Positions 13,128 through 58,291 of a DNA stretch of 64,000 nucleotides are shown here, piece by piece. The stretch covers positions 1 through 64,000 of the forward strand of contig JAVYWK010000010.1 in assembly GCA_038727095.1 (NCBI GenBank), read 5' to 3'. Below the pieces are notes generated by a model. It was given only the letters and a program-made list of their open reading frames with translations, made no database searches and had not been told where the DNA came from. The position numbers and the translations under genes are program-made. How positions within the stretch are numbered: position 1 is the stretch's first letter; the number at the start of each line of letters is the position of its first letter. This DNA is from Thermofilaceae archaeon (GTDB taxonomy: Archaea; Thermoproteota; Thermoprotei; Thermofilales; Thermofilaceae).

Positions 13128-13149
13128 GAAGAGATAATCAAGACACTCG

Positions 13150-15195: not shown

Positions 15196-15552
15196 AAATA
15201 AAAGTTAATTTTATTTTTTATTTATAAAGTAATTCAAACTGAAGGAGATATTGAAAATCGGTTTTCAATTGAGCATCCGAAAGCGATCACTATTGGGTTC
15301 GCAAGTCTATGAGCACTGATCTAGGATCAAAGTCGTATAACTTATGGCTAAAGTTAGTGGGGAGCAGCTTTATGTTTCTATTACCTCTAGTCGCGTGATT
15401 CTCACAAGAAGCATTTTCCTTGTGTTCAAACATTCCTCTCGCCTGAGTTCATCAGCATGTTGCTTAAGCCTCTACAGTGATGCTTGAGATCACCCTATCT
15501 TACTTCCGCAGGCTTCCTCACAGTCCTCTTACTACCGTTCGTTCTCTAACCC

Positions 15553-15824
15553 TTCTCACAATGTATTCTCTCTCCAGTCCATAGTATACCTGATGGCGTC
15601 GAAGGACGATAAGTGGGGCATCACGCTGTTCACGCTCGGACTCTTCACTGTTAGCGCTTTAGTGGGGACCGTGGCAGCCATCCCTCACAGTGCTCGTGTT
15701 AACACTCCTCCTGAGGAGGGTGAGGATTGCGGCATCGCGCGCCCGCTCGCTGAATAAGCTCAACAAAGTACTGGGAGCTGCAATGGTTGCAGCCGCGGTT
15801 CTCTACGCAGCTGGCTTGATCTAG
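15553..15824 (+). pseudogene. Decayed, internally deleted ccdA remnant
   Basis: FSQCILSP/IVYLMASKDDKWGITLFTLGLFTVSALVGTVA matches intact FSPCILPLLPIVYLIASKGGRRGAAWFTLGLFSLSSLIGTVA; LTVLVLTLLLRRVRIAASRARSLNKLNKVLGAAMVAAAVLYAAGLI* matches the intact C-terminus; frameshift and deletion. Confidence 0.85.
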
Positions 15825-15944
15825 CGGAGGCGTAGCCTGCAACGGCACTGGCTGCGCACGGGCTTTGAGCTTGCGCTCGCAGCAGGGAGAGCGCGGTAGA
15901 GGTTAGTGGATACCTTTAATCCCCCGCTACCGCAGGCTAAGAAG

Positions 15945-37052: not shown

Positions 37053-37090
37053 ATTTTTAAAGTAGAGCCGCTCTTCCTTCAATTGTAGAT

Positions 37091-38353
37091 ATGCACGCTG
37101 CTCTCGAGTACCTGGCCGTAGGGTTGTTGCTTGTGATCGTGATTCTAGCCGCAGGGCAGATGATCGAGGCTCCAGCGAGAACTGTGGAAACGGTGAAAGC
37201 AGAGCAGCTTTATACCGTGGCGGAGAGGTTAATCGATAAGATCCTGCTGACTCCCGGCTACCCGGAGAACTGGGGAGCAGACCTCCTCTTGGACCATGAA
37301 GTGATGGACTTCGGTCTCGCTCTTGCAGGTGCTAAAACGCCTTACATCGTGGATCCCGACAAGGTGATGCGGTTAGCGAACCTCACGACGTATCCGAATC
37401 CAGTGCCGATTAGCGCTGAAAGGATAGCCGAGCTTTTAGGCATTAAAGGTGAGTACGGATTCAGGCTGGAGATGAAGCCCATGATTAGAATTAGAGTCGA
37501 GGCGCTAGACGTTAACGACGGACTCCCCTCGACGTTTATCGTTAACGTAGTAAATTGGCAAGGTATCGCTCTGCCCAACGCTCGTGTAACTGGGATCTAC
37601 GTTATCGTGTACGTCCCCGTTGGAGTTGGAGCGGGCCAAGAAAACAAACAGGATAGGGCTGAAAGCGAGAATCCCCTCGTAGAAAGTTGTCTAACGGACT
37701 CCCTCGGTACCTGTACACTCCGTTTTACTATCCCAGTTTTAAAGCCTAAGGGGGGTATGTCTCCTGTACCCTTCATAGTTTTACACGTCAACTGGGAAGG
37801 CTTCGTCTGCATTTCCGGTTATTCACCAACGCCCAGAGCTTCAGGTGATAGTCCGGTTAACGCTTACATCGTTGGGAACACCATAATTGTTGAGGGAATC
37901 GATGAAATAAGGGGGGTTTTCAAAGTTGACGATGAAGTTGTGCAGGTGGTCCCCCAATACGGGATTCTGATAGAGGATACCGATGTTGAATGGTGTAGAG
38001 CACAACCAGGAGGTCGCGTAGAACCAGAAGACAATATCTGGTGCCACAGGGTGGCCGGTAGAATCCTCCCCGCAAGGCGTAAAGAAGGCGTGGACTACTT
38101 GCTAGGGCGAGTTTACAGCTTAGAACGCCTATCCAGCCATATTATAGTCACGGGAGTCTGGACGAAAGGTGAGCCCGCTTCAGAAAAGGGGGTTGCCATT
38201 GTGATCTCAAGGATACCGGAGGTTGACATAAGCTGGGGGGCCGAAAACGCTCAACCAGCTAACGCGGTAACGATAACTCGGATAGCCCAGATATACAACT
38301 ACCCCTACATCGTCCGCTTGACGATTTGGCGATTAGTGGAGGGCTGGCCGTGA
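37091..38353 (+). CDS. Minor pilin-like membrane-anchored protein
   Basis: MHAALEYL plus hydrophobic helix; TPGYPENWG, DFGLA, DPDKV. Confidence 0.7.
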   Translation: MHAALEYLAVGLLLVIVILAAGQMIEAPARTVETVKAEQLYTVAERLIDKILLTPGYPENWGADLLLDHEVMDFGLALAGAKTPYIVDPDKVMRLANLTTYPNPVPISAERIAELLGIKGEYGFRLEMKPMIRIRVEALDVNDGLPSTFIVNVVNWQGIALPNARVTGIYVIVYVPVGVGAGQENKQDRAESENPLVESCLTDSLGTCTLRFTIPVLKPKGGMSPVPFIVLHVNWEGFVCISGYSPTPRASGDSPVNAYIVGNTIIVEGIDEIRGVFKVDDEVVQVVPQYGILIEDTDVEWCRAQPGGRVEPEDNIWCHRVAGRILPARRKEGVDYLLGRVYSLERLSSHIIVTGVWTKGEPASEKGVAIVISRIPEVDISWGAENAQPANAVTITRIAQIYNYPYIVRLTIWRLVEGWP

Positions 38354-43624: not shown

Positions 43625-44131
43625 GTGGCCAGGAGGAGGGCTATCAGCCCGGTTATCGCCACTGTCATCATTGTAGCCGTAACCATCGCCGTCGCTATCG
43701 CTGTAGCCTTCTGGATGACCGGCATCATCGGCCTCTTCACAGGCTTCGAACAACTGCAAATCATCAGTATCCTTGATGATCAGAATGGCATACAGGTGAC
43801 AGTAAAGAACACAGGCACATCGACAGCCTCCATAACCGACATCTATATCAACGGAAGAGCCTGTGTAGCTCAAAAAGCCTGCAATGTAACTACAGATAAT
43901 CAATCCCTCACTCAAGGTAAACCGATTATCTTAAGGTCAGGCGAACAAAAAGTTCTGAAGATTCAAGAAGTTAATCAATCCCTTGTCGGCAACATTGGTC
44001 CAGGCGTGAGTGTTGAAATAAAGCTGCTCACAGCTTCAGGTAAAGAGTACCCCAAGCTCATCGTACTGCAAGAGTACACACCTTCCTCGACTACTGGTAC
44101 ATCGAGCAACCAGACAAAAACCGGCTCATAA
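43625..44131 (+). CDS. Probable major type IV pilin
   Basis: MARRRA|ISPVIATVIIVAVTIAVAIAV; VKNTG...IYING; LLTASGKEY; own TATA-like element and T-run terminator. Confidence 0.9.
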   Translation: MARRRAISPVIATVIIVAVTIAVAIAVAFWMTGIIGLFTGFEQLQIISILDDQNGIQVTVKNTGTSTASITDIYINGRACVAQKACNVTTDNQSLTQGKPIILRSGEQKVLKIQEVNQSLVGNIGPGVSVEIKLLTASGKEYPKLIVLQEYTPSSTTGTSSNQTKTGS

Positions 44132-44175
44132 GTTTTTTTATATCTACATTTATTTTTTACTATTTTTATAATTCA
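44132..44175 (+). terminator. Oligo-T terminator region after the pilin
   Basis: GTTTTTTTA and further T runs immediately after the stop. Confidence 0.55.
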
Positions 44176-44324
44176 ATTTCATAATATAGTATTAACATGT
44201 GAGGTAGTTATTTTCACTTTTATACCTATTTTCACAGTACACGCGTACCGTTTTTGGATTGCATAGATTGTTTCGTTGTGCTTATTAGGTTATATGGTCA
44301 ACGATAGCTCTGTAAGCGTTATGT

Positions 44325-44840
44325 TTAGCCCGTTTTTATGCTCTTCATGATAATTTTTCTCAGTGCTTCCTCGATTTCACCGGCTTTGTAGTTTACCCCG
44401 AGCTTGCTGGTGTAGGTTTTGCCGTTCCAGCCGAGGACAATGTAGGCCTTCGGCGTCGTGTTGAAGAGTTTGGCTGTGAGCCACGCGTAGATGGCTGCTT
44501 GCGCTTCAGCATATCTGTCCGGCTCTTTATAGTGCTTCAGTTCGACGACTTCGATTGGTTTCCCGTGCCGGAATCTGACGAGGTCGGCTATCCCGTAGAT
44601 CCACGTTCCTTCGAGTGTGTGGGCTAGGGGGAGGGGTGTCCAGTAGTCTTCGCTGGTGCAGGCTTGTAGGGGGTCTCCCCAGACGTTGTGGGCTTTGACT
44701 CCGGTTTTAGCGCTGCTGCCGTGGCTGCGGGGGCTGCTGATCCTCCTGGCGAGCTCTGTGACTGTGACTGAGCTGGGGCTGGCTCTGGCGCGCTCGTAGA
44801 GCTCGATGGCTTTCTTCACCTTTTGCAGGCACTCCTCCAT
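44325..44840 (-). CDS. PD-(D/E)XK (Cas4/RecB-like) nuclease
   Basis: GVKAH, GIADLV, VVELKH, QAAIY; no FeS cysteine set; start ATG 44840. Confidence 0.75.
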   Translation of the reverse strand: MEECLQKVKKAIELYERARASPSSVTVTELARRISSPRSHGSSAKTGVKAHNVWGDPLQACTSEDYWTPLPLAHTLEGTWIYGIADLVRFRHGKPIEVVELKHYKEPDRYAEAQAAIYAWLTAKLFNTTPKAYIVLGWNGKTYTSKLGVNYKAGEIEEALRKIIMKSIKTG

Positions 44841-44847
44841 TCTTCGA

Positions 44848-45225
44848 ATGGTTTTAAAACGGGGATTGTTTAGGGTTTCCGTGGAGCTTTCAACGCTCCT
44901 GCTGGTTGCGGTTGCGATCGCTGTCTCGGTGGCTGCCGCGCTGTGGGCTTCCAACATCGCCTTCCACTACACGGGCTTCGAAATGCTCGATGTATTCTGC
45001 CGAGCCGGGGAGGGGGGTGTAACCGTCACTGTCAGGAACAGGGGGACGAGGCCCGTGACTTTGATCTCTGCGGTTGTTGAAGGGGAGGTGAGGGAGCTTG
45101 GCTTGACCTTGAGGCCGGGTGAGCTTGGGGAGTTCTCGCTGCCCGTTAAGCGCGCGGGGGTTGTGCAGGTTGAGGTGAGGACGCCGGGTAAGGTGTACCC
45201 TTGCGTGGTGGAGGTTAGGGGGTGA
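44848..45225 (+). CDS. Second pilin paralog with degenerate signal peptide (start uncertain)
   Basis: VSVELSTLLLVAVAIAVSVAAALW...TGFEML, VRNRG, LRPGE and TPGKVYP align with the major pilin. Confidence 0.75.
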   Translation: MVLKRGLFRVSVELSTLLLVAVAIAVSVAAALWASNIAFHYTGFEMLDVFCRAGEGGVTVTVRNRGTRPVTLISAVVEGEVRELGLTLRPGELGEFSLPVKRAGVVQVEVRTPGKVYPCVVEVRG

Positions 45226-45628
45226 CGCGGCTCTCGATCTCCCTCTCGACGATCTCGGCCACTTTTCTCCCGAGGGGTGTGAGGGCGATGATCTTCCTTT
45301 GGGGTGTTGCGACGAGCTTCACCAGGCCCTTCTCGGCCAGCTGTAGTGCGAGGCCGAGCCCGAGCTTCGATGTGAGCCCTGTCATCCTCGCGACGGTGCT
45401 GAGGACCTCGGCTCCCCCGCTCGCCTTGACGGTCAGTAGGGCTGCGATCTGCTTGTCGGTGAGCTCGATGATCCTCCCGTCGACGTCCAGGGTTAGGAGG
45501 ACGCGCTGCCTCTTCGGGGGCTCCCCGTCCATCACGTGGCGGCTCGCCTTCCTCCTGATGACGGCTACCGCCTCGGCGGCCCTTGAGACGGCGAGGGTCA
45601 GCTCCCGCAGCTCGTCAAGCCCCTCCAT
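45215..45628 (-). CDS. Winged-helix protein
   Basis: LDVDGRIIELT, QLAEKGLV, ALTPLGRKVA. Confidence 0.75.
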   Translation of the reverse strand: MEGLDELRELTLAVSRAAEAVAVIRRKASRHVMDGEPPKRQRVLLTLDVDGRIIELTDKQIAALLTVKASGGAEVLSTVARMTGLTSKLGLGLALQLAEKGLVKLVATPQRKIIALTPLGRKVAEIVEREIESRVTP

Positions 45629-45973
45629 TCAACCACCCAGCGCCTCCTGCATGATCCTCCAGAGCCCAGCTGCCTCCGCCTTCCTGCGGATCTCGTCGGC
45701 GGCTTTTGCGCCGCGCTCGGTGAGCAGGTAGATCCTCGTCCCCCTCACGTTGTAGCTCTCGACGAGCTCCAACTCGACCAGGCGGTTGACCGTCCTGAGG
45801 GCTCCCGCGTGCCCCGTGGCGACGAGCTCCACGTCGGAAAGGGTGAGGGCGTTCCAGTCGACGAGCCTCATCACGAGTAGCACTGCCGCCTCCCTCCAGG
45901 TCAGCTTGTATTGCCTCCCATCGACCTCCACGTTCAAGAGCGTTCGCCCGGATCCTAGCCACCTTAAGCCCAT
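45629..45973 (-). CDS. Winged-helix protein (start uncertain)
   Basis: VEVDGRQYKLT, RLVELELV, LLTERGAKAA. Confidence 0.75.
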   Translation of the reverse strand: MGLRWLGSGRTLLNVEVDGRQYKLTWREAAVLLVMRLVDWNALTLSDVELVATGHAGALRTVNRLVELELVESYNVRGTRIYLLTERGAKAADEIRRKAEAAGLWRIMQEALGG

Positions 45974-46561
45974 ATAAGCAATTCTCCGACTCTTGCGAAG
46001 CATGCTGCCGGAAAGTGCCAAGCGTGCGGGCAGGGTTTCTGTCCGTTAGCGCAACCCCGCTATCGTGTTTCGATGCGGGCATTAAAAGCCCTTGCACAGC
46101 TGGAGGGAACCTGCCCGTGCGCTACCGGAGAACCTTAAAGTGCCCCCCTCGGAAGGGCTTTGAACACGCACCGAAGCGCGCTTGGTGCCCTGCTAGTTGA
46201 CCTCAAACCCGTTACCAATCAATTGTCAGAGCGCGTTTTTCTAGTGGATGCGGCTGCCTAGGTCGCTTGATCCTGTCGAGCGATTATTGGCCTTGTTTTC
46301 CCGGTACCTGAAACAGGTGGTGTAGGGCGCACGTTTGATCCTCTCCCCCTCACCTCACTCTCACACAGTTTTCCAAAACGCGGGAGCATGATTCGAGATC
46401 GCTGCTCATACGCTGGTGTCGCGCTCAAACGTATACACGCACCTCGACAGCTGTGCGTCGCCTACAACGGGTTTCCCCGATCTAACGGATTAGACTGCAA
46501 AGCTGCAGCGCGTCAGTTCCACGACCCGGGTTTTCCCTGACTTGCAGCCCACCGAGAGGGT

Positions 46562-46906
46562 TTAAAATAGAAAGCTTACCAGTTCGCTGTATACCTTCCA
46601 GCCGCGCTCGGTAAGAGCAGCGTATGTTCTAAATGGTGTTGAAATTATTTTCACGAGACCGTTTCTCTCCATCTCCCTCAAGACAGCTATCGCCTGGCGC
46701 AAGTTTCCCGCAGCTAGCGAGGAGAGCGGAGCCTTCCCCCCAGCCTTAGCCAGCTTCAGGATGATCTCGATAGCTGCACTGTCGATGCTTTCACCCCCCG
46801 TTTGCTGTGAAGTAACTTTCAACCTGTAAAGGATGTTGGCTGCTGCGGCGATTTTGTCGGCCGTTTTAACACCCTTCGTAAGCTCAAGCAGAGCCTCATT
46901 GCGCAT
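46562..46906 (-). CDS. Winged-helix protein
   Basis: EMERNGLVKI, ALTERGWKVY. Confidence 0.72.
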   Translation of the reverse strand: MRNEALLELTKGVKTADKIAAAANILYRLKVTSQQTGGESIDSAAIEIILKLAKAGGKAPLSSLAAGNLRQAIAVLREMERNGLVKIISTPFRTYAALTERGWKVYSELVSFLF

Positions 46907-46972
46907 ACCTCGCTATGGCGGGGGAGTTTATTGAGTCTATTTAAACTGTTCCCCCACAGCGGTATTGGGCTT

Positions 46973-47314
46973 TCATTGATCTCTGTTGTTCTCGGTAGCT
47001 GACTTCACGGGTGCTTGGTGAAGGAGCCGAAAAATGAGCACATACGTCAGTTCGGGGATTGGTTCTTTTCTAGTTTCTTCAACTAGCTTGCGAGCGGCAT
47101 GGATCCCGATCACGAGATCCTTAAACGCTCCGTCGTGGGGATTCTTGAGCGTCGTCCCGTTCTCTTCCATCCATTTTTCAGGGTAAATCCGATTTTTTAA
47201 ATCAATCGCTGAATATATACCATCGTCAGATTGTTTTTGCCCTTTAACAGAGCTTTCCGCTGCAACCTTCTGCATCCTCGGATCCTTCTCCTCCATGACG
47301 TGGAGGCGTCCCAA
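46973..47314 (-). CDS. Hypothetical protein or gene fragment
   Basis: Lower-GC ORF between wHTH genes, no motif recognised. Confidence 0.4.
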   Translation of the reverse strand: MGRLHVMEEKDPRMQKVAAESSVKGQKQSDDGIYSAIDLKNRIYPEKWMEENGTTLKNPHDGAFKDLVIGIHAARKLVEETRKEPIPELTYVLIFRLLHQAPVKSATENNRDQ

Positions 47315-47358
47315 GCTCCTTTTTCAAACCTTTAGTTCATGAGGGGGTTTGAGCCGGC

Positions 47359-47709
47359 TTAAAGGAGTTTGGCTTCCTTCGCCATCCTCTCAAGTTCCTC
47401 CGCAACTTTGGCACCGTCTTCTGTCAAGTAGATGATGCTGCTCCGTCCAACCGTGAGTTCTCCGACCAACCCCTTCGCCTTTAAATCGTCCACCAGTGCT
47501 CTCAGCTTTCCTAGGTCGGGCTCTACTGCTTGGAGACGGGTCAGGGGTAGAGCGTTGAACCTGACCCACCGTAGGGCCAGGAGCACTGCGATGCCTCTCC
47601 AGTCAAGCTCGTAGCTCTTCCCCTCCACCTCGATGATCAAGCTGCGCTCAGGAGGGCTTACCGATAAATAAAATATCAAGTTTATCCCATCCTCTTCATC
47701 AGAGATCAT
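47359..47709 (-). CDS. Winged-helix protein, paralog of 45629-45973
   Basis: IEVEGKSYELDWRGIAVLL...FNAL...KGLV...YLTEDGAKVAEEL. Confidence 0.75.
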   Translation of the reverse strand: MISDEEDGINLIFYLSVSPPERSLIIEVEGKSYELDWRGIAVLLALRWVRFNALPLTRLQAVEPDLGKLRALVDDLKAKGLVGELTVGRSSIIYLTEDGAKVAEELERMAKEAKLL

Positions 47710-47945: not shown

Positions 47946-48995
47946 TCAGTACTTTACGACTTTGGTGAGCTTTGTGGGCTTGTCGGGGTCGAGTTCTCGG
48001 AGTAGGCTGAGGTGGTAGGCGGTGAGTTGAGCTACTTTGGCGAGGGGGATTGCGTTTGCCTCGCCTCCAGCGTCCGGGAATTCGATTGCGCAGGATGCGT
48101 ACTGGGTGAAGCTTGAGGCTCCGGGGCCGATGAGCACGATCGGCGCCTTGTGGCCGGCGATTCTCTCGAGAGCTTTCGCGGAAGCTTCGAAGCCGCTTCT
48201 CGAGGCTGCGTAGACGAGCACCGGCGTGTTCTCCTCGACTAGCTGGAGGGGTCCGTGGAGGAACTCCCTGACGGCGAACCCCTCGGCGTGCAGCATGGCG
48301 GCCTCCTTCAGCTTGAGCGCCGCCTCCAGAGCGATTGGGTAGCCGACCCCTCTGCCGAGGCAGAAGGCGTGCTCCGCCTTCACCATGGCCTCCGCGACGC
48401 CCTTAACCCTGCCGTCCTCGGACAGCACTTTCCTCGCCGCCTCCGCGGCCTTCTCGATCTCTCCCAGGCTTTTGCCTGCTGCCTTGTAGGCCAGCATGAG
48501 GGCTGCGGTGAGCTGGACGTCGAACGTCTTCGTCGCTGCAACCGCTTTCTCCTCCCCGGCTCGGGTGACGATCGCGGCGTCAGCTATCCTGGCGAGCGTG
48601 CTGCCGGGCGTGTTCGTGATCGCGATCGTCTTGGCGCCCGCGCTCTTCGCGACGTTGAACGCCTCGATAATGTCGCTGCTCTCCCCGGACTGGGAGTAGC
48701 CGATGATGAAGTACTTCCCCCTCTCAGGGCGCCACTCGGCGAACTCTGACGCGGGGATGGCTGCGACGTGTAAGCTGGTGTACTTGCTCAAGAGCTGCTG
48801 GAGGAATAGGCTGGCGTGGAAGCTCGTGCCGCTCCCGATGATGAACCCGCTTGTAACCCCCTTCGCCTCGAGGTCGGTGAGGAGATTTGCCGCGGAAGCC
48901 ACCTGGTCAGCGGCTTCGCGGAGCGTGCGGAGAACCGCGTCGGGGCCCTCGGCCAGCTCCTTCCCCATAAACTCGCCTTTCCTCTTCTCGGCCAC
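47946..48995 (-). CDS. SIS-only GlmS-like protein (glucosamine-6-phosphate deaminase GlmD type)
   Basis: GSGTS, SQSGES, ITN, AATKTF, EAALKLKE, HGP, LTKVV; no glutaminase domain. Confidence 0.88.
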   Translation of the reverse strand: MAEKRKGEFMGKELAEGPDAVLRTLREAADQVASAANLLTDLEAKGVTSGFIIGSGTSFHASLFLQQLLSKYTSLHVAAIPASEFAEWRPERGKYFIIGYSQSGESSDIIEAFNVAKSAGAKTIAITNTPGSTLARIADAAIVTRAGEEKAVAATKTFDVQLTAALMLAYKAAGKSLGEIEKAAEAARKVLSEDGRVKGVAEAMVKAEHAFCLGRGVGYPIALEAALKLKEAAMLHAEGFAVREFLHGPLQLVEENTPVLVYAASRSGFEASAKALERIAGHKAPIVLIGPGASSFTQYASCAIEFPDAGGEANAIPLAKVAQLTAYHLSLLRELDPDKPTKLTKVVKY

Positions 48996-49047
48996 GGGGC
49001 TTCATAGCGATACCAGATATAAGCGTTCTCGAGCGGGTGGAGGGGGG

Positions 49048-49422
49048 TTGCGCGTGATAGTGGGGCTGGGGGTTGACATCGAATCGGTGGATCGGTTTAG
49101 AAGGATGAGGAGGGAGGTTTTCCTAAGAGTCGTGAAGAGGGTTTTGACCGAGAACGAGGAGAGGTACTGCTTCGGTAGAGCCGATCCCTACCCTCACGTT
49201 GCCGCGCGCTTCTGCGCAAAGGAGGCGTTCGCGAAGGCCTTGGGGTTTGAGAGGGCCTGGCTGATACCGTTCAAGGACGTTGAAGTGCTCGGCTCACCCC
49301 CTCGGCTTACAGCCATGGGTAGAGCTGCGGAAGCATTGAGGGAAAAAAGCGCGCGATTCGTCCTCGTCAGCCTATCCCACACGAGCGAGTACGCGGTCGC
49401 GGTCGTCGTGCTCGAGGCTTAG
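49048..49422 (+). CDS. acpS: Holo-[acyl-carrier-protein] synthase
   Basis: GLGVDIE, AARFCAKEAFAKALG, SLSH; start reassigned to about 49048. Confidence 0.93.
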   Translation: MRVIVGLGVDIESVDRFRRMRREVFLRVVKRVLTENEERYCFGRADPYPHVAARFCAKEAFAKALGFERAWLIPFKDVEVLGSPPRLTAMGRAAEALREKSARFVLVSLSHTSEYAVAVVVLEA

Positions 49423-49688
49423 CCCGCCTTCACCCTGCCCGAGGCCCTCAGCTTCTCGATCACGTAGGCGATCGCTTGGCCGACGGTCTGGTTCTTCTCC
49501 ACGTCCTCGTCGGGGACCTCTATGCCGAAGGCGTCCTCGATCTCAGCGACGAGCTCTATCGTGGTTATCGAGTCGGCACCCAGGTCGTCTATGAAGCGGG
49601 TTTCAGGCTTCAGCTCCTCGGGCTTAACCCTGTAGATCCTGGCGATGATCTCCTTCACCCTAGCCTCGATCTCCCTCTCGGATAGCAT
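49419..49688 (-). CDS. acpP: Acyl carrier protein
   Basis: RVKEII, DDLGADS phosphopantetheine site, ELVAEIEDAFGIEVPDE, TVGQAI. Confidence 0.95.
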   Translation of the reverse strand: MLSEREIEARVKEIIARIYRVKPEELKPETRFIDDLGADSITTIELVAEIEDAFGIEVPDEDVEKNQTVGQAIAYVIEKLRASGRVKAG

Positions 49689-49715
49689 GCTCTCGACCCG
49701 CAGGCATCGCGCATC

Positions 49716-50990
49716 TTATATCCCTTTCTCCCTTTCCAGCTTCTGCTGGTACAGCTGTATGTAGTGCTCCCTTTCTTCCCGCGTTGCCTCGTACAGGTGG
49801 CTCAGCATCCTGGCCTGCGGCTCCGTCAGCGTCCTACCCCTCCTCCTCATAACCTCCTCTGCCGTCCTCAGCATCCTCCGCAAGCCCGGACCCTTGCTTA
49901 GCCTGCCGTTGATGTACCAGGTGAAGGAGGGTATGTACTTGGGCGATATGTCGGGGGCTAGCACGTTGCACATCACGCCGACAACAGCCCCCGTGTTGAG
50001 CAGCGTCCCGATGCTGGTCTTCGTGTGGTCGCCGATGAAGCTGCCCACCTTCTGACTGCCCGTCTTGACGGGCTTCCCGTTGATGTAGACTTCAACCTCG
50101 CTGTAGTCGTTCTTCAGGTCGCTGTTGGTCGTCAAAGCGCCGAGGTTGACCCACTCCCCGACGTAAGCGTGCCCGAGGAAGCCGTCGTGGTACTTGTTGC
50201 TGAAGCCGTGGATGATCGACTCCTCCACCTCACCACCAACCCTGCAGACGGGGCCTATCGTGATCCCGCCCCTGAGGCGGGCCATGGGCATGACGTAGGT
50301 CTCCTCCCCTATGTAGGTCGGCCCCTCGATGTAGGTGAACGGGTATACGCGGGCCCCCTCGGAGATGATGACGGGGCCGTGCTCCGCGTCGATCACCACG
50401 TTGGGGTAAACGACGGCTCCCGGAGCGATGTAGACGTCCTCCCTCTCGCCGAGCAGCTCGATGTGCCCCTTAATCTTCCCGTGCACGCCCCCTTTGCCGA
50501 GCCTCGCGAAATCGCGCTTTATCGCATCCGGGTTCTCGAAGATGAGATCCCAGGGCCAGTTGGCCAGCCTAGCCTTAACCTCCTCCCTACCCAGCTCCTC
50601 GGACAGCCTTGCGACCAGCTCCGGGATGGGCAACCCCCTGTACCTCTCGAGCGTCGCCCTCTTCGCCCTGATGAAGACGACCTCGCCCCCATTGACGCCC
50701 ACGTACTCGTCCTTTACGTCGACCTCCTCCCCCGCGTGGATCCAGCGGCCGTTGAGGAGTAGCACGTCGTCCGGTGGGAGCTGGTTGATCAGGAAGTTCG
50801 GGTGCCTCTCCCTCAGCACCTCGGTCAAGTACTCCCTCACGTGGAGGCTGACCTCAGCCCCCCTCCCGAAGGCTGCTAGGAGCTTCTCGAGGATCGTTGT
50901 GGCGCCGACCCTGAGCTCGTAGACGGCTCGCGTCATCGTCAGGGGGTGGAAGTTCGCGGCCTTCCCATCCTCAAACACGCAGACCCTCAT
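49716..50990 (-). CDS. GlmU-like protein (putative sugar nucleotidyltransferase domain + hexapeptide-repeat acyltransferase)
   Basis: FED...FHPLTMTRAVYELRVG; left-handed beta-helix repeats; SNKYHDGFLGHAYVGEWVNLGA..NSDLKN. Confidence 0.85.
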   Translation of the reverse strand: MRVCVFEDGKAANFHPLTMTRAVYELRVGATTILEKLLAAFGRGAEVSLHVREYLTEVLRERHPNFLINQLPPDDVLLLNGRWIHAGEEVDVKDEYVGVNGGEVVFIRAKRATLERYRGLPIPELVARLSEELGREEVKARLANWPWDLIFENPDAIKRDFARLGKGGVHGKIKGHIELLGEREDVYIAPGAVVYPNVVIDAEHGPVIISEGARVYPFTYIEGPTYIGEETYVMPMARLRGGITIGPVCRVGGEVEESIIHGFSNKYHDGFLGHAYVGEWVNLGALTTNSDLKNDYSEVEVYINGKPVKTGSQKVGSFIGDHTKTSIGTLLNTGAVVGVMCNVLAPDISPKYIPSFTWYINGRLSKGPGLRRMLRTAEEVMRRRGRTLTEPQARMLSHLYEATREEREHYIQLYQQKLEREKGI

Positions 50991-51022
50991 GCCCCATCAC
51001 CGGTCAAAAACAGGCTATGCTA

Positions 51023-52237
51023 TTAAGCCTTATTTTTTAGGGTTCTGCGGAGAACCATTAAAGCCTCCTCTGCAATGGCCAGCTCCTCGTTGGTGGGTAT
51101 GACGAGCACCTTCACCCTCGAATCATCCCTGCTGATGATTCCGCCGTGCTGCTCCGGCTGTTCGTTCTTCACGGGGTCGAGGATGATCCCCAGGTTCTCG
51201 AGGCCCTCGAGGATCATCCTCCTCATCGCCGGGCTCCTCTCCCCGATGCCCGCTGTCATGACGATCGCGTCGGCTCCGTTCATGACGGCCATGTAGGCCC
51301 CGATGTACTTCTTCACCCTGTGGGCGAACACCTTCAGGGCCATCGCCGCCCTCTCGTCCCCCCTCTCGCTCGCCTGCAGGAGGACTCTCACGTCGTTCGA
51401 GATCCCAGAGAGGCCGAGCAGCCCGCTCCTCCTATTGAGGAGGTCGTAAACCTCATCCGCGCTCAACCCCTCCCACTTCATGAGGAAGTAGAAGATGGAG
51501 GGGTCGATGTCCCCGCACCTCGTCCCCATCACGAGGCCCTCGAGCGGGGTCAACCCCATGCTGGTTTCAACGCACTTGCCGTACATGACGGCAGCGATGC
51601 TCGCTCCGCTGCCCAGGTGGCAGGTGATCAGCTTCAGCTTCTCGAGCGGCATACCCAGCAGCTCAGCCGCCCTCCTGGCCACGTACCGGTGGCTGATGCC
51701 GTGGAACCCGTACCGCCTTATCCTGTACTTCAGGTAGTACTCGTACGGTATCGCGTACAGGTACGCCTCCTCGGGCAGCGTGGAGTGGAAGGCCGTGTCG
51801 AAGACGGCCACGTGCAGAGCGTGGGGGAACACGCTCTTCGCAGCTCTGATGCCCAGCAGGTTGGCCGGGTTGTGGAGGGGGGCCATCCTCGCGTACTCCT
51901 CTATGACCCGCTCCACCCGCTCGTCGATCACCGAGGATTCACGCATTTCGCCTCCGTGGACCACCCGGTGGCCGACGGCTGCGATCTCCTCCGGCCTCGC
52001 GATCACGCCCAAGCCGGGGTCGCTGAGGACCCTGAGAATGTGCTGGAGGGCTTCCCCGTGGTCCCGGATTCTCGCCTCGTACCTCAACCCACCCCTCGGG
52101 CCCCTGTAGTCGACGTACGAGACTTCCTCCCCGATCCTCTCGACGATCCCCCCGGCCAGCTCTACGAGGGCTTCCCCGCAATCGTAGACCCTGAACTTCA
52201 CCGTGGAGCTGCCGCTGTTCAAGACGAGGATCTTCAC
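51023..52237 (-). CDS. ackA: Acetate kinase
   Basis: [61 protein letters not shown]. Confidence 0.97.
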
Positions 52238-53262
52238 CCCTCCCTCACCGCCCCTGCTATGGCCGAGACGATCGCGATGACGCCCACGATGTCCTCCACC
52301 GTCGCCCCGCGGGAGAGGTCGCTGGCCGGCTTCGCGAAGCCCTGGAGTATGGGGCCGTAGGCTCTAGCCCCAGCCAGCCTCTGCACCAGCTTATAGGCTA
52401 TGTTGCCGGAGTTCAAGTCGGGGAATATGAGCACGTTCGCCCTCCCGGCGACGGGGCTCTCACCCTTCACCTTCCTCCTCGCGACCCCCGGGTCCAGCGC
52501 CGCGTCAGCCTGGAGCTCCCCATCGATGAGGAGCGCCGGATCCTTCGAGCGCGCGATCTCCAGCGCCTTCAAGACCTTGTCGACGAGCGGGTGCGACGCG
52601 CTACCCTTCGTGGAGAAGGACAGTAGGGCGACCCGGGGCTCCCAGCCCAGCAGCCACCTAGCGCTCCTCGCCGTAGCGATCGCGATCTCGGCCAGCTGCT
52701 CGGGGGTGGGGTTCACGTTGACGGCGCAGTCGGCGAAGATGAGGCACCCTTCCTCGCCGCCCGCGTAGCCCGGGATCTCCATCAGGAAGAAGCTGGACGG
52801 CGTTGAAATGCCCGGCTGGAAGCCGATCGTGAGGGCGCAGGCTCGTATGACGTTGGCGGTCGTGTTGATGGCACCCGCAACCATCCCGTCCGCTGCCCCT
52901 TCCCGCACCATCATCGCGGCGTAGAAGAGCTCCCTCCTCATCAACTGCCTAGCCATCCCCAGCCGATCCTCCCCGTAACCCCTCAAGGCCAGGTACCTGC
53001 GCGCGTACAATTCCGAGCTCTCCGGGTCGGGTTCGACGACTTCAACCCCCTCCAGCCCCAGCCTCCGGTAGACCTCCTCCACCACCCTCCTCTCGCCGAC
53101 TAGGACGGGCGTAGCCACCTTCATGTCGGCTGCCCTCCGTGCTGCTGCAGCTATCCTCTCGTCAGTAGCCTCGGGTAGAACGATCCTGGAGCGGTATCGC
53201 CTAGCTCTCTCGAAGATCCTCTCCATAACAGGTGAGGGCTTGCTCACGCTTGCAACAACCAA
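52234..53262 (-). CDS. pta: Phosphate acetyltransferase (start uncertain)
   Basis: [53 protein letters not shown]. Confidence 0.96.
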
Positions 53263-53468: not shown

Positions 53469-54098
53469 CTACCCGTACGCTCCCAGAGCCTGCAGAGTTA
53501 CTTCGGCGAGCATTGAGGCTCCGAAGTAGACGACGAGGAGCGCTAGCGCGGCGAGGATCACCCTGTAGGCTTTCGTGTTCATCCGGCTGAGGGAGCCTGC
53601 GGCCGCCACGATGGTTAGCCAAGCGTAGTCGAGCCAGACGTGCGTCAGGTAGAAGGCGAGGATGCTGGCTTGCCCGCCCTGAAGGGCTTCAGCTACCAGG
53701 GGTGAGCCCACCCCCAGCCACCAGACGATGAAGAAGGGGTTGAAGAGCGAGAGAGCAACCCCGGTGGCGAGCGGCCCCCTCATCCTGTGAGATTCCTTCG
53801 GGTCGAGGTTGGGCTTCAGGGAGGACGTCAGCGTGAGGTAGCCGAAGAAGAGCATGAAGGCTCCGCCCGCCACTCCCAGGAGGAGCCTCGAAGCAGGACT
53901 GTCGAGTAGGCCGCCGAGCCCGTAAGCGATGGAGAGGACGAGGGGGAACTCAACGATCGTGTGGCCCACCGCTACCCCGACCCCGGCTTTCCAGCCCTTT
54001 CTAGCCCCCAGGGCGGCTGTCGCGGCTGTTAGGGGCCCAGGAGCTAGGGCTCCGGAGGCGCTGACAGTTACAACCTTGAGGGCTAAATCCAGATTCAC
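53469..54098 (-). CDS. LysE family translocator
   Basis: SGALAPGPL, GHTIVE, SLFNPFFIVWW. Confidence 0.88.
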   Translation of the reverse strand: MNLDLALKVVTVSASGALAPGPLTAATAALGARKGWKAGVGVAVGHTIVEFPLVLSIAYGLGGLLDSPASRLLLGVAGGAFMLFFGYLTLTSSLKPNLDPKESHRMRGPLATGVALSLFNPFFIVWWLGVGSPLVAEALQGGQASILAFYLTHVWLDYAWLTIVAAAGSLSRMNTKAYRVILAALALLVVYFGASMLAEVTLQALGAYG

Positions 54099-54131
54099 TG
54101 GTGTAGGTTTCTATACATCCCACTTATATGT

Positions 54132-54839
54132 TTAGAGGAGGTTCTTCCACTCGAGGAGCCTGATCGCCTCGAGGAAACCCCTGTAGAAGTCGCCTTCCAC
54201 CGTGTACGTGGCCTTCTCCCTAACCCGGGCGGGAGCGTTAGCGAGCGCTACGCTTACGCCGGCGACCTCGAACATCGGGATGTCGACCTCGCTATCCCCG
54301 ACAGCTGCGACCAGGGAGGGGTCGATGTTCAGCATCCCGCAGGCCTCCAGTAGGCCTCGAGCCTTATTGACCCCCTTCCTGTGGACGTGGATCGCCCAGC
54401 CGCTATCGACGACCTCGAACCCCCTCGGCTCGAGGACGCGTGCAGCCCTCTCCACAGCCTCCTCCCGGCTCAGGTTCGGCGCCGGGTGGAAGGCTAGGTC
54501 GACGAACCTGTACTCGTTCTGCCAGCTGTTGAGGAGCACGCCATTCAGCTCCTCCCCGACGATCTTGAGGATCGCCTCTTTGTCCTCGATGGGTGCTAGG
54601 AGCCTATAGTCGCCTCTAAACCCTACTACCCCGCCGTTCTCGGCGACCGCCAGCCTAGTCACGGGCAGGTAGTAGGCCAGTGTTGATACAGCCGGGTAGG
54701 AGGCCCCCGAGACGATCAGCACGCTAACGCCCCGCTCTCTCAGCATCTCCAGCGCTCTGACCACTTCGTGGCGGATGACGCCCTTCTCGTCCGTTAGAGT
54801 CCCATCGAGGTCTACAGCGAGGCAGGAGATCCGACCCAT
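54132..54839 (-). CDS. HAD IIB phosphoglycolate phosphatase-like hydrolase
   Basis: DLDGTLTD, AENGG, VNKARG, VGDSEVD. Confidence 0.88.
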   Translation of the reverse strand: MGRISCLAVDLDGTLTDEKGVIRHEVVRALEMLRERGVSVLIVSGASYPAVSTLAYYLPVTRLAVAENGGVVGFRGDYRLLAPIEDKEAILKIVGEELNGVLLNSWQNEYRFVDLAFHPAPNLSREEAVERAARVLEPRGFEVVDSGWAIHVHRKGVNKARGLLEACGMLNIDPSLVAAVGDSEVDIPMFEVAGVSVALANAPARVREKATYTVEGDFYRGFLEAIRLLEWKNLL

Positions 54840-54871
54840 GTAGGGCCGCAGGCTAGTCTCTACGGGGTTGA

Positions 54872-56290
54872 TTAGGGTTTCTCCTCAAACTCCACCTTCA
54901 GCTCCAGGGCTTCGCTCCGCTGGATTGCGGTCAACTCCGCGTTTACACGCTCGATGAGCTCCCCGAGCTTCTTCCGGCTCAGCTCCCTCGTCTCGTGGCC
55001 GATGAAGTCGACCGCCCTCGTGCCCCTAGCGGCTCTCGCGTAGTCGCTCAACCTCTTGAAGAGCACCTTCACCCCGTACTCGTCGGGGTGCAGAGCCATC
55101 GGGGAGTTGGGGTCGATGGTGTAGGGGATCAACGGGTAGATTGCGGTGCACCGCTTGCCCTCGAGCAGCTTGGCTGCGAATCTCGGGATGTCCAGCGCGC
55201 TCCTCTCGGTTTCACCGGGTAGACCTAGGAGGAAGAAGACCTCCACGAGTGCTCCCACCTTTTCGGCCGCTGCTAGAGCCTTCTCGAGCGCCGCGTTCGT
55301 GAAGTACCTCTTAGCTCTGAAGCGCACCTCCTCGCTTGCGGTTTCCGGCGATACTGCGACGTCGAGGGCCGCGAAAGTCCTTGAGGCCTCCTCGAGGAGG
55401 GGTTTCGAGGGCAACCTGAAGCTCTCCCAGTACACCTTCAGGTCCAACCCTCTCTCACGAACCTCCCTGTGAAACGCCTTCCACCACCGCTCGCCCAGGA
55501 TTTGGGGGTCGTGGGTCAGTCGAGCGATCCTAACCCCCATCGAAGCCAGCTCCTCCAGCTCGCTCGCGACGAGCGCAGGGCTCCTCGAGGCCAACCCCCA
55601 CCTCCCCATCGCTAGCTTGTAGCCCTCCCTCGAACCCCCGCAGTAGATGCAGTCGAAGAGGCAGCCCCTGGCCAGCGCAAGCCAGAAGTGCGGCTGTTGG
55701 GCTGCGAGGGGCCCGTGGAGCCCAACTTGCAGGTACTCTCTAGCGTGCCTCATCACCTTAAGCCCTTCAACGTACCTCAACCCCTCGAGGCTCGGGGGGC
55801 TGCTTAAGCCCCCGTCGATCCACCTCCTCCCCGCCCTCACGTAAAGGCCACTCCAATCCTCCGGCTCCACGCCGCGGATCGCGTACTTGAGGTACTTCAG
55901 GAGGGCCTCCTCCCCCTCCCCCAGCACAACAGCGTCAACGCCGCTCGCAGCCACCACGCGCGCGAACAGCGTGGCCGTCATACCCCCCACTACGACCTTA
56001 GCGGAGGGGTTGAGGGTTTTCAGCAGCCTTACGGTGCTGAGGGCTCCGTCCGCGTGGACGAACCAGTGCAGCGAGACAGCGTAGACTTCAGCTTCAAGTC
56101 CCTTGATAACATCCGCGTACCGCTTACCGGTGAGGGCGGACTCGAGTGGTATGTTCACGATCTCCACATCGAAGCCCTCCGCTAGAGCACGCGCTGCCAG
56201 CGAGAAGACCCCGACGGGCGCAATCGCGAAAGGGTTAGCTCCGGGGGTTAGCGTGGAAGGAGGGTGGATGATGACGGCGTCCCTCGCCAT
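54872..56290 (-). CDS. B12-binding-domain radical SAM protein
   Basis: SLHWFVH, VVVGGMTAT, GEGEE, RGCLFDCIYCGG, GLPGET; start ATG 56290. Confidence 0.88.
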   Translation of the reverse strand: MARDAVIIHPPSTLTPGANPFAIAPVGVFSLAARALAEGFDVEIVNIPLESALTGKRYADVIKGLEAEVYAVSLHWFVHADGALSTVRLLKTLNPSAKVVVGGMTATLFARVVAASGVDAVVLGEGEEALLKYLKYAIRGVEPEDWSGLYVRAGRRWIDGGLSSPPSLEGLRYVEGLKVMRHAREYLQVGLHGPLAAQQPHFWLALARGCLFDCIYCGGSREGYKLAMGRWGLASRSPALVASELEELASMGVRIARLTHDPQILGERWWKAFHREVRERGLDLKVYWESFRLPSKPLLEEASRTFAALDVAVSPETASEEVRFRAKRYFTNAALEKALAAAEKVGALVEVFFLLGLPGETERSALDIPRFAAKLLEGKRCTAIYPLIPYTIDPNSPMALHPDEYGVKVLFKRLSDYARAARGTRAVDFIGHETRELSRKKLGELIERVNAELTAIQRSEALELKVEFEEKP

Positions 56291-56353
56291 GCTCGCTCTC
56301 CCCTCCTCCTTAAAAATAGGCATATTGAAAAAGCTTAAAGGCACGTATGGGGG

Positions 56354-58291
56354 GTGCGCGCCGTGGGCGTTGAGCGCCTTGAGAGCGGTTTAACGTGGAG
56401 GGCGATGGCAATCGTCGCGATGGCCGCTCTCGTCTTCGTTCCTGCAAGCACTTACCTCTACCTGGTTACGGGCGCCACGCTGGGTGTTGTCGGCACGTAC
56501 GCGATGATGATGATCTTCGCCTACATCATGAGAATGCTCGGCTTTGAGCTGAGACCCCAGGAGGTCTTCGTCACCTACGTGGGCGTGGCAGCGGTCGCGG
56601 GCCTCGCATCCACCTCCTACTTCCTCATCATCTACAGGATGTACTTCGTTGAGAGCCCTATCGCCCGCTCCTACTACATAGGCGGGGTCCCCCTGTACGA
56701 GGCGGTCCCCGAGTGGCTGGCCCCACCCCTCGGCTCAAGGGCGTACCTCGTTCGCACGTTCTTCCAGCCGGATCTCGTCAAGCCGATCGCCGCCTGGACG
56801 GTAGCGATGGTCCTTACAGTGCTCGCCGAGCTCTCCCTAGTCATACTCGCTTCTCACGCTTTTGTGGAGGTTCAGAAGCTCCCCTTCCCCTTCGCCCAGG
56901 TCGACGCAACGATCGTCACCGCAATCTCCAGCGGCGAGCGCTTCCGCGAGCTGGTCAAGTACCTGATGCCCGGCTTCTACACGGGGCTTGTCTACGGGCT
57001 GATCCTCTACCTTGGCCCCTTCCTCGGCTTCCCCATTATCCCCCTACCTTTCATCGACTTAACCCGTCTAACTTCCGCAACCCTGCCCGGGGCTGTGATC
57101 GGTGTAGCGACGAGCCTTACGGCCTGGGTAGGGGGGATGGTTGTGCCGTTGGGGATCTCCTCGGTAGCCTTGGCAACATCGGTGGCTGTCTGGGTCTTAG
57201 GCAACTACCTCATCCTGACGAACCCCTCGCTGAGGGTGGTTTTCCCCGAGTGGGGCATGGAGTACTACCAGGGGATGGATCTCGTCAGGGTGCTGCAGAG
57301 GTCTCAAGTCAGAGTTTGGCTCCCAATCCAGATCGGCGCCGCGCTCGGCTTCGCGGCCCTCGTTCTAGCCAAGTACAGGAGAGCCTTCGGTACAACGGCT
57401 AGGGCCATCTACCTGTCGATCAAGGGGGCCGGCAGGGAGAGCGTTTTCCCCCCGCTCCGCCTCGCGCTAGCCCTCTACCTAGCCGCGACGCTCACCTCCG
57501 TCGCCGTCTTCCACTACCTGATCCCCGGCTTCCCTCTCGCAATCCCGCTCGTGATGTCCCTGGTGGTCGGCACTCTGATGGGCTTTGTTTCCGCCTCTGT
57601 CGTCGGTGAGAGCGGAGCCTCCTTCTCCTCACCACCGTTCCTCTGGCACACGATCGTCTACCTGACGCCCGCGCAGCACCTCTCCCCGAGGGAGGCGTAC
57701 TCCGCCTTCGTCTACCCGCCCGTCATCGCAGGCTCGATGACCGGCGGTGGCGCTCAAGTGATGAAGGCCGCGCTGCTCACTGGCACAAAGCCCTCTGACG
57801 TCATCAAAGTGTGGATTCTCGCCTTCGCGTTAGGGGTTCTCATCAACCTTCTGTCCCTGGACATGCTGTGGAGGATCGCGCCTATACCGAGCAGCGCTTA
57901 CCCGAGCACTGTCATTTCGATGCCGGCGACGGCGATGATCGACGCTCTCCTCGTCACAAGGGGGTTGAGGATCGAGCCCGGGATTCTGATGGGCTCGGCG
58001 GCGGGAGCCGTGATGATGGCGGCCCTCGTCGAGGCCTTGGCAAAGCTGCTCAAGGTTGGGGTCTCCTCCTCCGGCCTACTGCTCGGCCTCTTCACTCCCC
58101 CCGTAACGGCGATACCGATGTTCACCGGCTCAGCGCTCGGCTGGCTGGTGTTGCGCCGCAGGTTTAAGGAGCGCTGGGAGCAGGCCCGCTACGCGATTGT
58201 CGCCGGGACTTTGATAGGGGAGGGGTTGGCGGCTACAATAGCTATAATAGGCTTAATGCTGTCGAAAGCCTCGTGGCTCTGGCCGTGGTGA
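56354..58291 (+). CDS. OPT-like polytopic membrane protein (module copy 2, subunit A)
   Basis: SGLTWRA, QKLPFP, PIPSSAYP, KASWLWPW end like KATWIKPW of copy 1. Confidence 0.8.
   Translation: MRAVGVERLESGLTWRAMAIVAMAALVFVPASTYLYLVTGATLGVVGTYAMMMIFAYIMRMLGFELRPQEVFVTYVGVAAVAGLASTSYFLIIYRMYFVESPIARSYYIGGVPLYEAVPEWLAPPLGSRAYLVRTFFQPDLVKPIAAWTVAMVLTVLAELSLVILASHAFVEVQKLPFPFAQVDATIVTAISSGERFRELVKYLMPGFYTGLVYGLILYLGPFLGFPIIPLPFIDLTRLTSATLPGAVIGVATSLTAWVGGMVVPLGISSVALATSVAVWVLGNYLILTNPSLRVVFPEWGMEYYQGMDLVRVLQRSQVRVWLPIQIGAALGFAALVLAKYRRAFGTTARAIYLSIKGAGRESVFPPLRLALALYLAATLTSVAVFHYLIPGFPLAIPLVMSLVVGTLMGFVSASVVGESGASFSSPPFLWHTIVYLTPAQHLSPREAYSAFVYPPVIAGSMTGGGAQVMKAALLTGTKPSDVIKVWILAFALGVLINLLSLDMLWRIAPIPSSAYPSTVISMPATAMIDALLVTRGLRIEPGILMGSAAGAVMMAALVEALAKLLKVGVSSSGLLLGLFTPPVTAIPMFTGSALGWLVLRRRFKERWEQARYAIVAGTLIGEGLAATIAIIGLMLSKASWLWPW

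Follow-up and report, generated by a model that had tools for sequence, protein, structure and literature searches.

A conserved gene module joining an acyl carrier protein to acetate-activation and amino-sugar genes in a Thermofilaceae archaeon

The transfer of acyl groups from an acyl carrier protein (ACP) to amino sugars is the established chemistry of the LpxA/LpxD-type beta-helix enzymes, and in rhizobia NodF and NodA bring about the ACP-dependent N-acylation of glucosamine residues, the acyl group used by NodA being a fatty acid from NodE together with the fatty-acid synthase (FAS). On the side of acyl-group supply, PlsX acts as an acyl-ACP:phosphate transacylase, and CitC acetylates the ACP of citrate lyase. 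Here we describe a locus of six genes at positions 47,946 to 53,262 of a 64,000-nucleotide stretch of DNA, hereafter the window (contig JAVYWK010000010.1, positions 1 to 64,000; assembly GCA_038727095.1), from a Thermofilaceae archaeon, in which an ACP and the holo-ACP synthase AcpS are combined with phosphate acetyltransferase (Pta), acetate kinase (AckA), a GlmU-like protein and a GlmS-like protein made of two SIS domains (SIS-only). The set forms a conserved module that is found in archaea and in many bacterial phyla and is complementary in its distribution to GlmS and to the acetyltransferase half of GlmU; we read it, tentatively, as an acetyl shuttle that supplies amino-sugar metabolism.

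The locus resembles several described systems in part. The GlmU-like protein shares with the C-terminal domain of GlmU and with ST0452 of Sulfolobus tokodaii the left-handed beta-helix, an aligned catalytic His and the two-domain layout; unlike them, it lacks the G-x-G-T-R signature, scores low against the GlmU and Arch_glmU models, has four substrate positions changed and is coupled, as a gene, to an ACP. As with LpxD and LpxA, a beta-helix enzyme would place an ACP-borne acyl group on an amino sugar, and a basic region could dock the ACP, but the matches to these families reach just 17–19 bits, acetyl is presumed instead of a hydroxy-fatty acyl group, and no FAS feeds the ACP. PlsX and CitC show by precedent that acyl groups can pass between the thiol of an ACP and phosphate and that acetyl-ACP can be made from acetate and ATP, whereas the candidate loader in the present module is an ordinary-looking Pta (PF01515) and the phosphopantetheine site of the carrier is a normal one, with AcpS to serve it. 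The NagA/NagB and GlmS/GlmM/GlmU pathways share the metabolites of the module, which itself includes NagB or a SIS-type deaminase; in contrast to these pathways, its carriers mostly do without GlmS, the acetyltransferase half of GlmU and NagA, and the ACP, Pta and AckA are added. NodF, lastly, is likewise a dedicated ACP that donates an acyl group to a glucosamine amine, but NodA does not belong to the beta-helix proteins, what it transfers is a fatty acyl group from NodE and FAS, and the distribution of the system is narrow.

The six genes and their host genome

The genes, with the scores of their model matches in bits and the corresponding cut-offs, are as follows:

52234..53262, minus strand: pta, phosphate acetyltransferase (PF01515, 364.9; TIGR00651, 319.7 against a cut-off of 311.2)
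51023..52237, minus strand: ackA, acetate kinase (PF00871, 476.6; TIGR00016, 475.6 against 293.4)
49716..50990, minus strand: GlmU-like protein of 424 amino acids (aa) (TIGR03991, 394.4 against 225.3; PF13562 and PF00132 (Hexapep))
49419..49688, minus strand: ACP of 89 aa (PF00550, 64.2 against 20.8; TIGR00517, 78.2 against 70.45)
49048..49422 (start inferred), plus strand: acpS, holo-ACP synthase (PF01648, 60.7 against 25; TIGR00516, 65.2 against 59.8)
47946..48995, minus strand: SIS-only GlmS-like protein, a putative glucosamine 6-phosphate (GlcN-6-P) deaminase or ammonia-dependent GlcN-6-P synthase (two SIS domains)

The pta and ackA genes overlap by 4 nt, gaps of 32 nt and 27 nt separate ackA from the GlmU-like gene and the GlmU-like gene from that of the ACP, and acpS converges on the ACP gene, overlapping its stop by 4 nt; the SIS-only gene is divergent from acpS across a spacer of ~52 nt. 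A first-pass annotation of the window had described the same orders, strands, overlaps and gaps, and the coordinates bear it out. Curated cut-offs are passed by five of the six genes, the exception being the SIS-only gene. The likely start of acpS is either TTG 49048 or GTG 49054, both of which are preceded by a GGAGG at 49039–49043. In G+C content (0.62–0.63) the six-gene stretch equals the high-GC bulk of the window. Contigs 90–99% alike extend across all six genes in one metatranscriptome run, from which neither transcripts nor strand can be deduced and to which DNA carry-over may have contributed, and two other RNA runs of the same study held nothing matching the locus.

In the ACP, which is acidic (pI 4.6), the serine to which phosphopantetheine is attached (Ser40, within the motif D-L-G-A-D-S) is invariant in 36 aligned sequences. 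Pta is like solved Pta enzymes along its full length (2e-76 to 6iow and 2.8e-70 to 1qzt, the Pta of M. thermophila) and conserves the positions aligned to R87, R133, S309 and R310 of 1qzt, which we take to be the catalytic Ser-Arg and the CoA-binding arginines. AckA is full length as well, its TIGR00016 match spanning model positions 4–402. PF00550 is absent from all 120 GlmU-like homologues among the matches listed and, on weak evidence, no fused form of the ACP exists. A search for PF00550 among longer proteins returned one protein of 204 aa, which carries PF00550 only.

The GlmU-like protein is laid out as a degenerate N-terminal nucleotidyltransferase-like domain, a left-handed beta-helix acetyltransferase domain and a basic C-terminal tail (net charge of the last 80 residues, +6). 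It matches TIGR03991 over its full length (model positions 1–394), a family that NCBIfam names 'alt_bact_glmU' and holds to be a hypothetical equivalog, a hypothetical alternative GlmU. It reaches neither the models of bifunctional GlmU (TIGR01173, 30.1 against 366.85; Arch_glmU, 109.8 against 292.1) nor those of LpxD (19 bits against 242.5) and LpxA (17.2 against 226). The beta-helix domain aligns best to ST0452 (2ggo/5z09, 1.7e-19), whose His308, presumably the catalytic histidine, is conserved as H268, and four ST0452 positions that we assume to bind substrate are changed (Y311F, N331D, K337S and K340E). The G-x-G-T-R motif, which we take to be the signature of the N-terminal nucleotidyltransferase, is absent from all 13 aligned members, the window's protein reading F-E-D-G-K-A-A-N-F at that place, so that uridylyl transfer by this protein would be unlikely. 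Six residues (D295, H322, N332, K351, G367 and G369) show little or no variation among 61 ACP-linked sequences and are replaced in a clade of ACP-less relatives, and residues 345–400 carry a mean net charge of +4.9 in the ACP-linked proteins against +0.7 in that clade. Because this region after the helix is basic and the ACP acidic, it is a candidate docking surface for the ACP. A metal site formed by His, Asp and Glu residues of the beta-helix was also considered and dropped, H322 being common to ST0452.

Only one PP-binding match, the ACP at 49419–49688, occurs in the host metagenome-assembled genome (MAG; 52 contigs, 1.86 Mb, completeness 92.4%). Within the limits set by that incompleteness, neither FabD nor FabA/Z was found in it, and there is no true ketosynthase, the KS/FabH-like matches being only a thiolase (486.7 bits) and, at 490.1 bits, the archaeal HMG-CoA synthase, an enzyme of the mevalonate pathway. 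FabD, FabA/Z and KAS, by which a type II fatty-acid synthase would be recognized, are thus all missing from a genome that is 92% complete, and the lack of fab genes that had been remarked on for the window extends to the entire MAG. Absence from an incomplete genome is no proof, and most of the genomes compared in this work are MAGs. It is nonetheless a supported conclusion that the ACP of this locus does not serve fatty-acid synthesis. Two reports describe ACP and ACP synthase as missing from nearly all archaea and the few cases as looking like transfers from bacteria (PMC3533463; bioRxiv 10.1101/2024.07.05.601840).

Distribution, co-inheritance and complementarity

In 61 sampled relatives, the window's own genome included, the ACP occurs in 10 and AckA in the same 10 and in one further MAG of 80% completeness; AcpS is present in nine of the 10 ACP-bearing genomes, the tenth being 76% complete. 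The ACP gene directly follows the GlmU-like gene in each of the nine other ACP-bearing relatives, and pta-ackA lies upstream of the GlmU-like gene in all six whose contig extends far enough; acpS converges on the ACP gene in six of the nine, and a SIS-only gene is adjacent in three. Three families of the order, and different phyla, share this arrangement of genes. Evenly sampled Thermoproteota genomes (301, each at least 80% complete) were scored for AckA (E <= 1e-20) and for a strong stand-alone ACP (E <= 1e-10 in an open frame of <100 aa): each was found in 15 genomes and both in 14, with ackA and the ACP gene always on one contig, 1.4–2.6 kb apart. Two genomes depart from this pattern: the first has ackA at the end of a contig, and the second only an ACP. 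In archaea the module is therefore inherited all or none, with the proviso that the 14 genomes come from five genera and that related genomes are not independent samples. The tie of the ACP to the GlmU-like protein, Pta/AckA and a GlcN-6-P deaminase, which had been proposed from the window, is upheld by conserved gene order and by this co-inheritance.

Eleven further genomes with PP-binding matches were left out of these counts, their matches being either large multidomain proteins (as in G125, G258 and G338) or weak (E 1e-4 to 1e-5). The weak matches, in open frames of ~80–113 aa, lie in another Thermoproteota family, f15 (G178, G223, G243, G280, G297 and G303), and in G122, and may represent carrier proteins that have diverged.

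Beyond the archaea, the module is present in many bacterial phyla. When one genome per species was scanned, 566 confirmed GlmU-like relatives were obtained, of which the best 80 loci were kept, a sample biased towards sequences resembling the window's GlmU-like protein. Its bacterial loci come from Omnitrophota, Ratteibacteria, Planctomycetota, Poribacteria, Latescibacterota and Elusimicrobiota, and further from Desantisbacteria, TA06, Zixibacteria, Abditibacteriota, a Cytophagia MAG and others; the archaeal ones come from Bathyarchaeia, Brockarchaeota, Hadarchaeota, Wolframiiraptor and MAGs labelled Nitrososphaerota. The conservation of the gene set that the first-pass annotation had asked about is hence found well beyond the archaeal relatives, and the archaeal specificity it had assumed falls away. 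Two findings that would have told against that annotation, a fab pathway elsewhere in the genome and a cluster lacking conservation, did not turn up. A same-strand ACP gene lies no more than 600 nt downstream of the GlmU-like gene in 58 of the 75 loci with at least 700 nt of downstream sequence. Where 2.5 kb is available on both sides (49 loci), pta is present in 35, ackA in 33, both in 33 and neither in 14, the commonest orders being pta-GlmU-like-ACP-ackA (16 loci) and pta-ackA-GlmU-like-ACP (12 loci). The genes are tightly spaced, with median gaps, measured on tblastn matches, of 41.5 nt from GlmU-like to ACP (n=56), 8 nt from ACP to ackA (n=19) and 46 nt from pta to GlmU-like (n=33).

Pfam searches of 116 neighbouring open reading frames (ORFs) from 15 loci found a NagB-type gene in eight of the 15 loci and no fab gene. 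All five bacterial module genomes that were checked have a second ACP between fabG and fabF, and the ACP of the module is therefore an extra, dedicated carrier. In seven planctomycete, poribacterial and latescibacterial loci (L041, L072, L081, L083, L090, L096 and L098) the ACP is followed by a 465-aa protein distantly resembling isopropylmalate, homocitrate and citramalate synthases (104–121 bits, with cut-offs above 400), and neither pta nor ackA occurs in any of the seven. Across 36 loci, the distances between pairs of Pta, AckA, GlmU-like and ACP sequences correlate (r 0.61–0.90), which is not counted as evidence because shared species history alone would give such a correlation.

A putative GlcN-6-P deaminase was found in all module genomes checked, as the SIS-only protein in the window and as NagB elsewhere. 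NagB is present in 57 of 74 usable GlmU-like loci (the 80 less three duplicates and three partial genes), and all seven NagB-type neighbours tested score above the nagB equivalog cut-off (292–433 against 236.9 bits); where no deaminase adjoins the module, as in four of the archaeal genomes, NagB is in each case encoded at another place. The SIS-only protein of the window matches the glmS model at positions 251–604 only (250.4 bits against a cut-off of 418), the N-terminal glutaminase domain being absent, and it stays below cut-off for both NagB-II (146.7 against 430) and GlmD (115.4 against 580). Its gene sits at the position held by NagB in related loci and, because NagB is so usual at that place, the SIS-only protein is probably a non-orthologous stand-in for NagB. 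Upstream of the SIS-only start (48996–49085) the alignment to the glmS model continues, past one TGA, to model position 213; this may be the trace of a truncation from a longer glmS, and it overlaps the start of acpS and could be due to chance.

The GlmU-like family itself is more widespread than the ACP. TIGR03991 is matched above cut-off in 42 of the 61 relatives, in 94 of the 301 Thermoproteota genomes and in none of 14 model control genomes, and most of the copies in the relatives and Thermoproteota are without an ACP. At 20 fetched ACP-less loci the protein is 36–44% identical to that of the window (45–51% for bacterial ACP-linked proteins), and a SIS-only gene adjoins nine of them; at one ACP-less locus three genes stand consecutively, a kinase-like one of the BadF/BadG type, the GlmU-like gene and a SIS-only gene. 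A maximum-likelihood tree, quickly built from 101 sequences, places 18 of the 20 ACP-less sequences in one nested clade (SH-aLRT 100), and the window's sequence clusters with six other ACP-linked Thermoproteales sequences. At least nine archaeal module genomes keep a second, ACP-less GlmU-like paralog. Between the ACP-linked gene of the window (50103–50260) and the ACP-less paralog of the same-species genome G002 (L114:5675–5832), a stretch of 159 nt that covers the catalytic core is 97.5% identical, while the two proteins are ~44% identical overall; the paralog of G003 differs at silent sites within it. The pattern suggests recent gene conversion. Contigs from metagenome and RNA libraries break at 50109 and 50260, that is, at the ends of this tract. 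The 11-kb region of G002 that holds the ACP-less paralog (G002:C6:51500-62600, L114) has no counterpart in the window's assembly; it could belong to the 8% by which the MAG is incomplete, or differ between strains.

No full-length GlmS and no Arch_glmU above cut-off were found in the host MAG. Full-length GlmS (E <= 1e-100) is present in none of the 14 Thermoproteota with ackA and ACP, against 260 of the 287 others, and within a single genus seven genomes have the module without GlmS, six have GlmS without the module and one has neither, all 14 carrying a GlmU-like gene. The same question was put to 45 GlmU-like genomes, comprising the window's MAG and 44 reached via their loci. Full GlmU is above cut-off in three of them, and 16 have only its N-terminal uridylyltransferase half as a stand-alone protein. 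These 16 bacterial proteins (within G061–G104) are ~260–310 aa long and match model positions 2–243 with 215–276 bits. GlmS is above cut-off in 16 of the 45 and in all 14 controls. NagA is above cut-off in 13 of the 45 and in five of the 28 with ACP, pta and ackA; the model search did not find it in the window's MAG. That the module is found mostly where GlmS and the acetyltransferase half of GlmU are missing speaks for a part in central hexosamine metabolism and not for the special surface decoration that had been envisaged for this locus.

As to the surroundings of the module, the genes upstream of pta (53469–58291) encode a LysE-type exporter, a HAD phosphatase (137.2 against 122.75 bits for the archaeal phosphoglycolate-phosphatase model), a B12-binding radical SAM protein and an OPT-family transporter, and they keep this position only in genomes of the same genus. 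On the other side, the SIS-only gene is adjoined at 45215–47709 by an array of small ORFs (113–137 aa) of lower G+C (0.51), and relatives of three of these also lie beside the SIS-only gene in the genomes G003 and G004. Farther away, positions 6001–16000 and 36001–38000 of the window are low-GC islands (0.43–0.49, against ~0.62 for the window) and may be foreign or mobile DNA.

A proposed acetyl shuttle and the competing readings

We favour, at a probability of roughly 0.4, the reading in which the ACP is a dedicated acetyl carrier between acetyl-phosphate, handled by AckA and Pta, and a GlmU-type N-acetyltransferase acting on glucosamine phosphate, the whole forming a GlmS-independent hexosamine route. 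AcpS would convert apo-ACP to holo-ACP, and AckA would form acetyl-phosphate from acetate and ATP; Pta would then move the acetyl group onto the phosphopantetheine thiol of the ACP, either directly or via acetyl-CoA. The SIS-only enzyme would make glucosamine phosphate from fructose 6-phosphate and ammonia, and the GlmU-like beta-helix enzyme would N-acetylate a glucosamine phosphate from acetyl-ACP. The net outcome, in an archaeon without GlmS or canonical GlmU, would be a GlmS-independent supply of N-acetylglucosamine (GlcNAc) phosphate for UDP-GlcNAc. Of this scheme, the identities of the genes, the conservation and co-inheritance of the module and its complementarity with GlmS and the acetyltransferase half of GlmU are observed; that acetyl is the cargo and Pta the loader, which sugar accepts it and which way the flux runs are inferred. 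The shuttle of acetyl groups is the core common to this reading and to its reversal, discussed below, and the biosynthetic direction was chosen because it follows the known chemistry of the family and explains both the exclusion of GlmS and the missing acetyltransferase half of GlmU.

A number of observations weigh against this biosynthetic shuttle. Pta does not appear specialized for ACP; it is canonical and keeps the residues aligned to presumed binders of the CoA nucleotide. The biosynthetic direction offers no reason for a private carrier over acetyl-CoA, and NagB is conventionally a catabolic enzyme. GlmS is found in six of the 28 genomes with ACP, pta and ackA (six of 27 without the window's MAG). 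Some loci have no ACP by the ACP hidden Markov model, among them eight with pta adjoining the GlmU-like gene; 18 fetched Thermoproteia loci have ACP-less relatives of the GlmU-like enzyme, and the retention of an ACP-less paralog beside the module suggests different roles for the two copies. At one locus (L057) NagA directly follows the GlmU-like gene, in the usual place of the ACP. The reliance on MAGs and the relatedness of the genomes, as noted above, lower the weight of the counts.

It is possible, and of the rivals this is the one to be taken most seriously even if we hold it to be unlikely, that the shuttle operates the other way round. The GlmU-like enzyme would move the N-acetyl group of GlcNAc phosphate to the ACP, Pta and AckA would turn it into acetate and ATP, and the deaminase would pull the reaction; in some bacteria a Claisen-type synthase would consume acetyl-ACP instead of Pta/AckA. 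The outcome would be substrate-level phosphorylation from an amide, or else the ACP would serve as a reversible acetyl buffer that lets GlcNAc-6-P be converted to GlcNAc-1-P while the acetyl group is kept. Transfer from an amide to a thioester is uphill by ~20 kJ/mol, as estimated from textbook values, and would therefore run only on a near-empty carrier pool, drained by Pta/AckA or by a Claisen synthase, and with the pull of the deaminase. A private carrier would then be needed, the acetyl-CoA pool being far too acetylated for uphill transfer, which explains why a dedicated ACP exists at all. The prominence of the normally catabolic NagB as the commonest neighbour (57 of 74 loci) and the scarcity of NagA (five of 28 full-module genomes, none found in the window's MAG) also fit, as does the 465-aa synthase-like protein of the seven loci without pta and ackA, which would make up, with Pta/AckA, two alternative sinks for the acetyl thioester. 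The loss of GlmS suits organisms that take amino sugar from outside, and the frequent retention of the ACP-less paralog and the ACP-less locus with the BadF/BadG-type kinase-like gene can be counted on the same side.

Reversal meets energetic and genomic objections, however. One ATP per GlcNAc is feasible, by estimate, only near equilibrium and at low acetate and GlcN-6-P, and no beta-helix acetyltransferase is known to us to run backwards under physiological conditions. That GlmS is strictly excluded (none in 14) resembles replacement more than a catabolic add-on, nagAB and glmS coexisting in ordinary bacteria. Moreover, the genomes with the 465-aa protein, which is HMGL-like, mostly have NagA elsewhere.

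Could the ACP instead be a bystander, with CoA used throughout, Pta and AckA ordinary, and the carrier regulatory, structural or unrelated? Such an arrangement agrees with the canonical state of Pta at the residues checked and with the existence of both ACP-less family members and loci that combine pta and the GlmU-like gene without an ACP; the putative gene-conversion tract, too, would show the catalytic core to be interchangeable between ACP-linked and ACP-less paralogs. We consider it improbable, given that AckA accompanies the ACP in 14 of 15 Thermoproteota genomes, the fifteenth ackA lying at a contig end, that bacteria keep the module ACP as an additional copy next to the enzyme (median 41.5 nt downstream), and that AcpS travels with the module in archaea.

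Quite improbable, in our view, is a carrier of a non-acetyl acyl group from which the GlmU-like enzyme would make a specialized N-acylated sugar for a surface glycan, the decoration of pili included, as the first-pass annotation had suggested for pilin genes in the window. The use of acyl-ACP by LpxA/LpxD-type enzymes, the weak LpxD model match (19 bits) and the four changes at the presumed substrate positions of ST0452 speak for it, and the HMGL-like partner of some bacterial loci could build a hydroxyacyl group. Against this, the constant partners of the ACP are enzymes of acetate, no enzyme that makes or loads a longer acyl chain was found in the host MAG, and a distribution complementary to that of GlmS and GlmU speaks for a housekeeping supply of hexosamine. 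The link to pili in particular finds nothing to lean on elsewhere, the two pilin ORFs at 43625–45225 having no match beside the module in the other fetched loci.

It is very improbable, finally, that ACP and AcpS are a remnant or a seed of fatty-acid, polyketide or lipoate metabolism in an accidental position: they are the classical pair of fatty-acid synthesis, and the ACP is 44–51% identical to the ACPs of bacterial fab clusters, but FabD, FabA/Z, a ketosynthase and a second carrier were not found in the host MAG, and the genes are arranged alike in three families of the order and in different phyla.

Meaning for acetate and amino-sugar metabolism

A literature search that covered few subscription journals found no paper on the module, its family names or its combination of genes. 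What the survey adds is, first, that nearly every strong stand-alone ACP and AckA in the 301 Thermoproteota genomes belongs to one module that is unrelated to fatty acids, and that the same module is common to many poorly known bacterial phyla. Second, where an organism lacks GlmS or full GlmU, the module is a candidate to fill the acetyltransferase and amination steps then missing from UDP-GlcNAc synthesis, and it may represent a new way of handling acetyl groups, via acetyl-ACP. Its parts are all small soluble proteins.

Third, the finding bears on metabolic reconstructions, that is, on how the Pta-AckA genes of uncultured archaea are read. Pta-Ack has reportedly been found in some Bathyarchaeota. 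One study describes termite-gut Bathyarchaeia as having neither Pta nor AckA (PMC7886697). Should the reverse or the buffer version of the shuttle prove true, the bacterial-type Pta-AckA of Bathyarchaeia-like and other Thermoproteota would be part of amino-sugar metabolism instead of general acetate formation.

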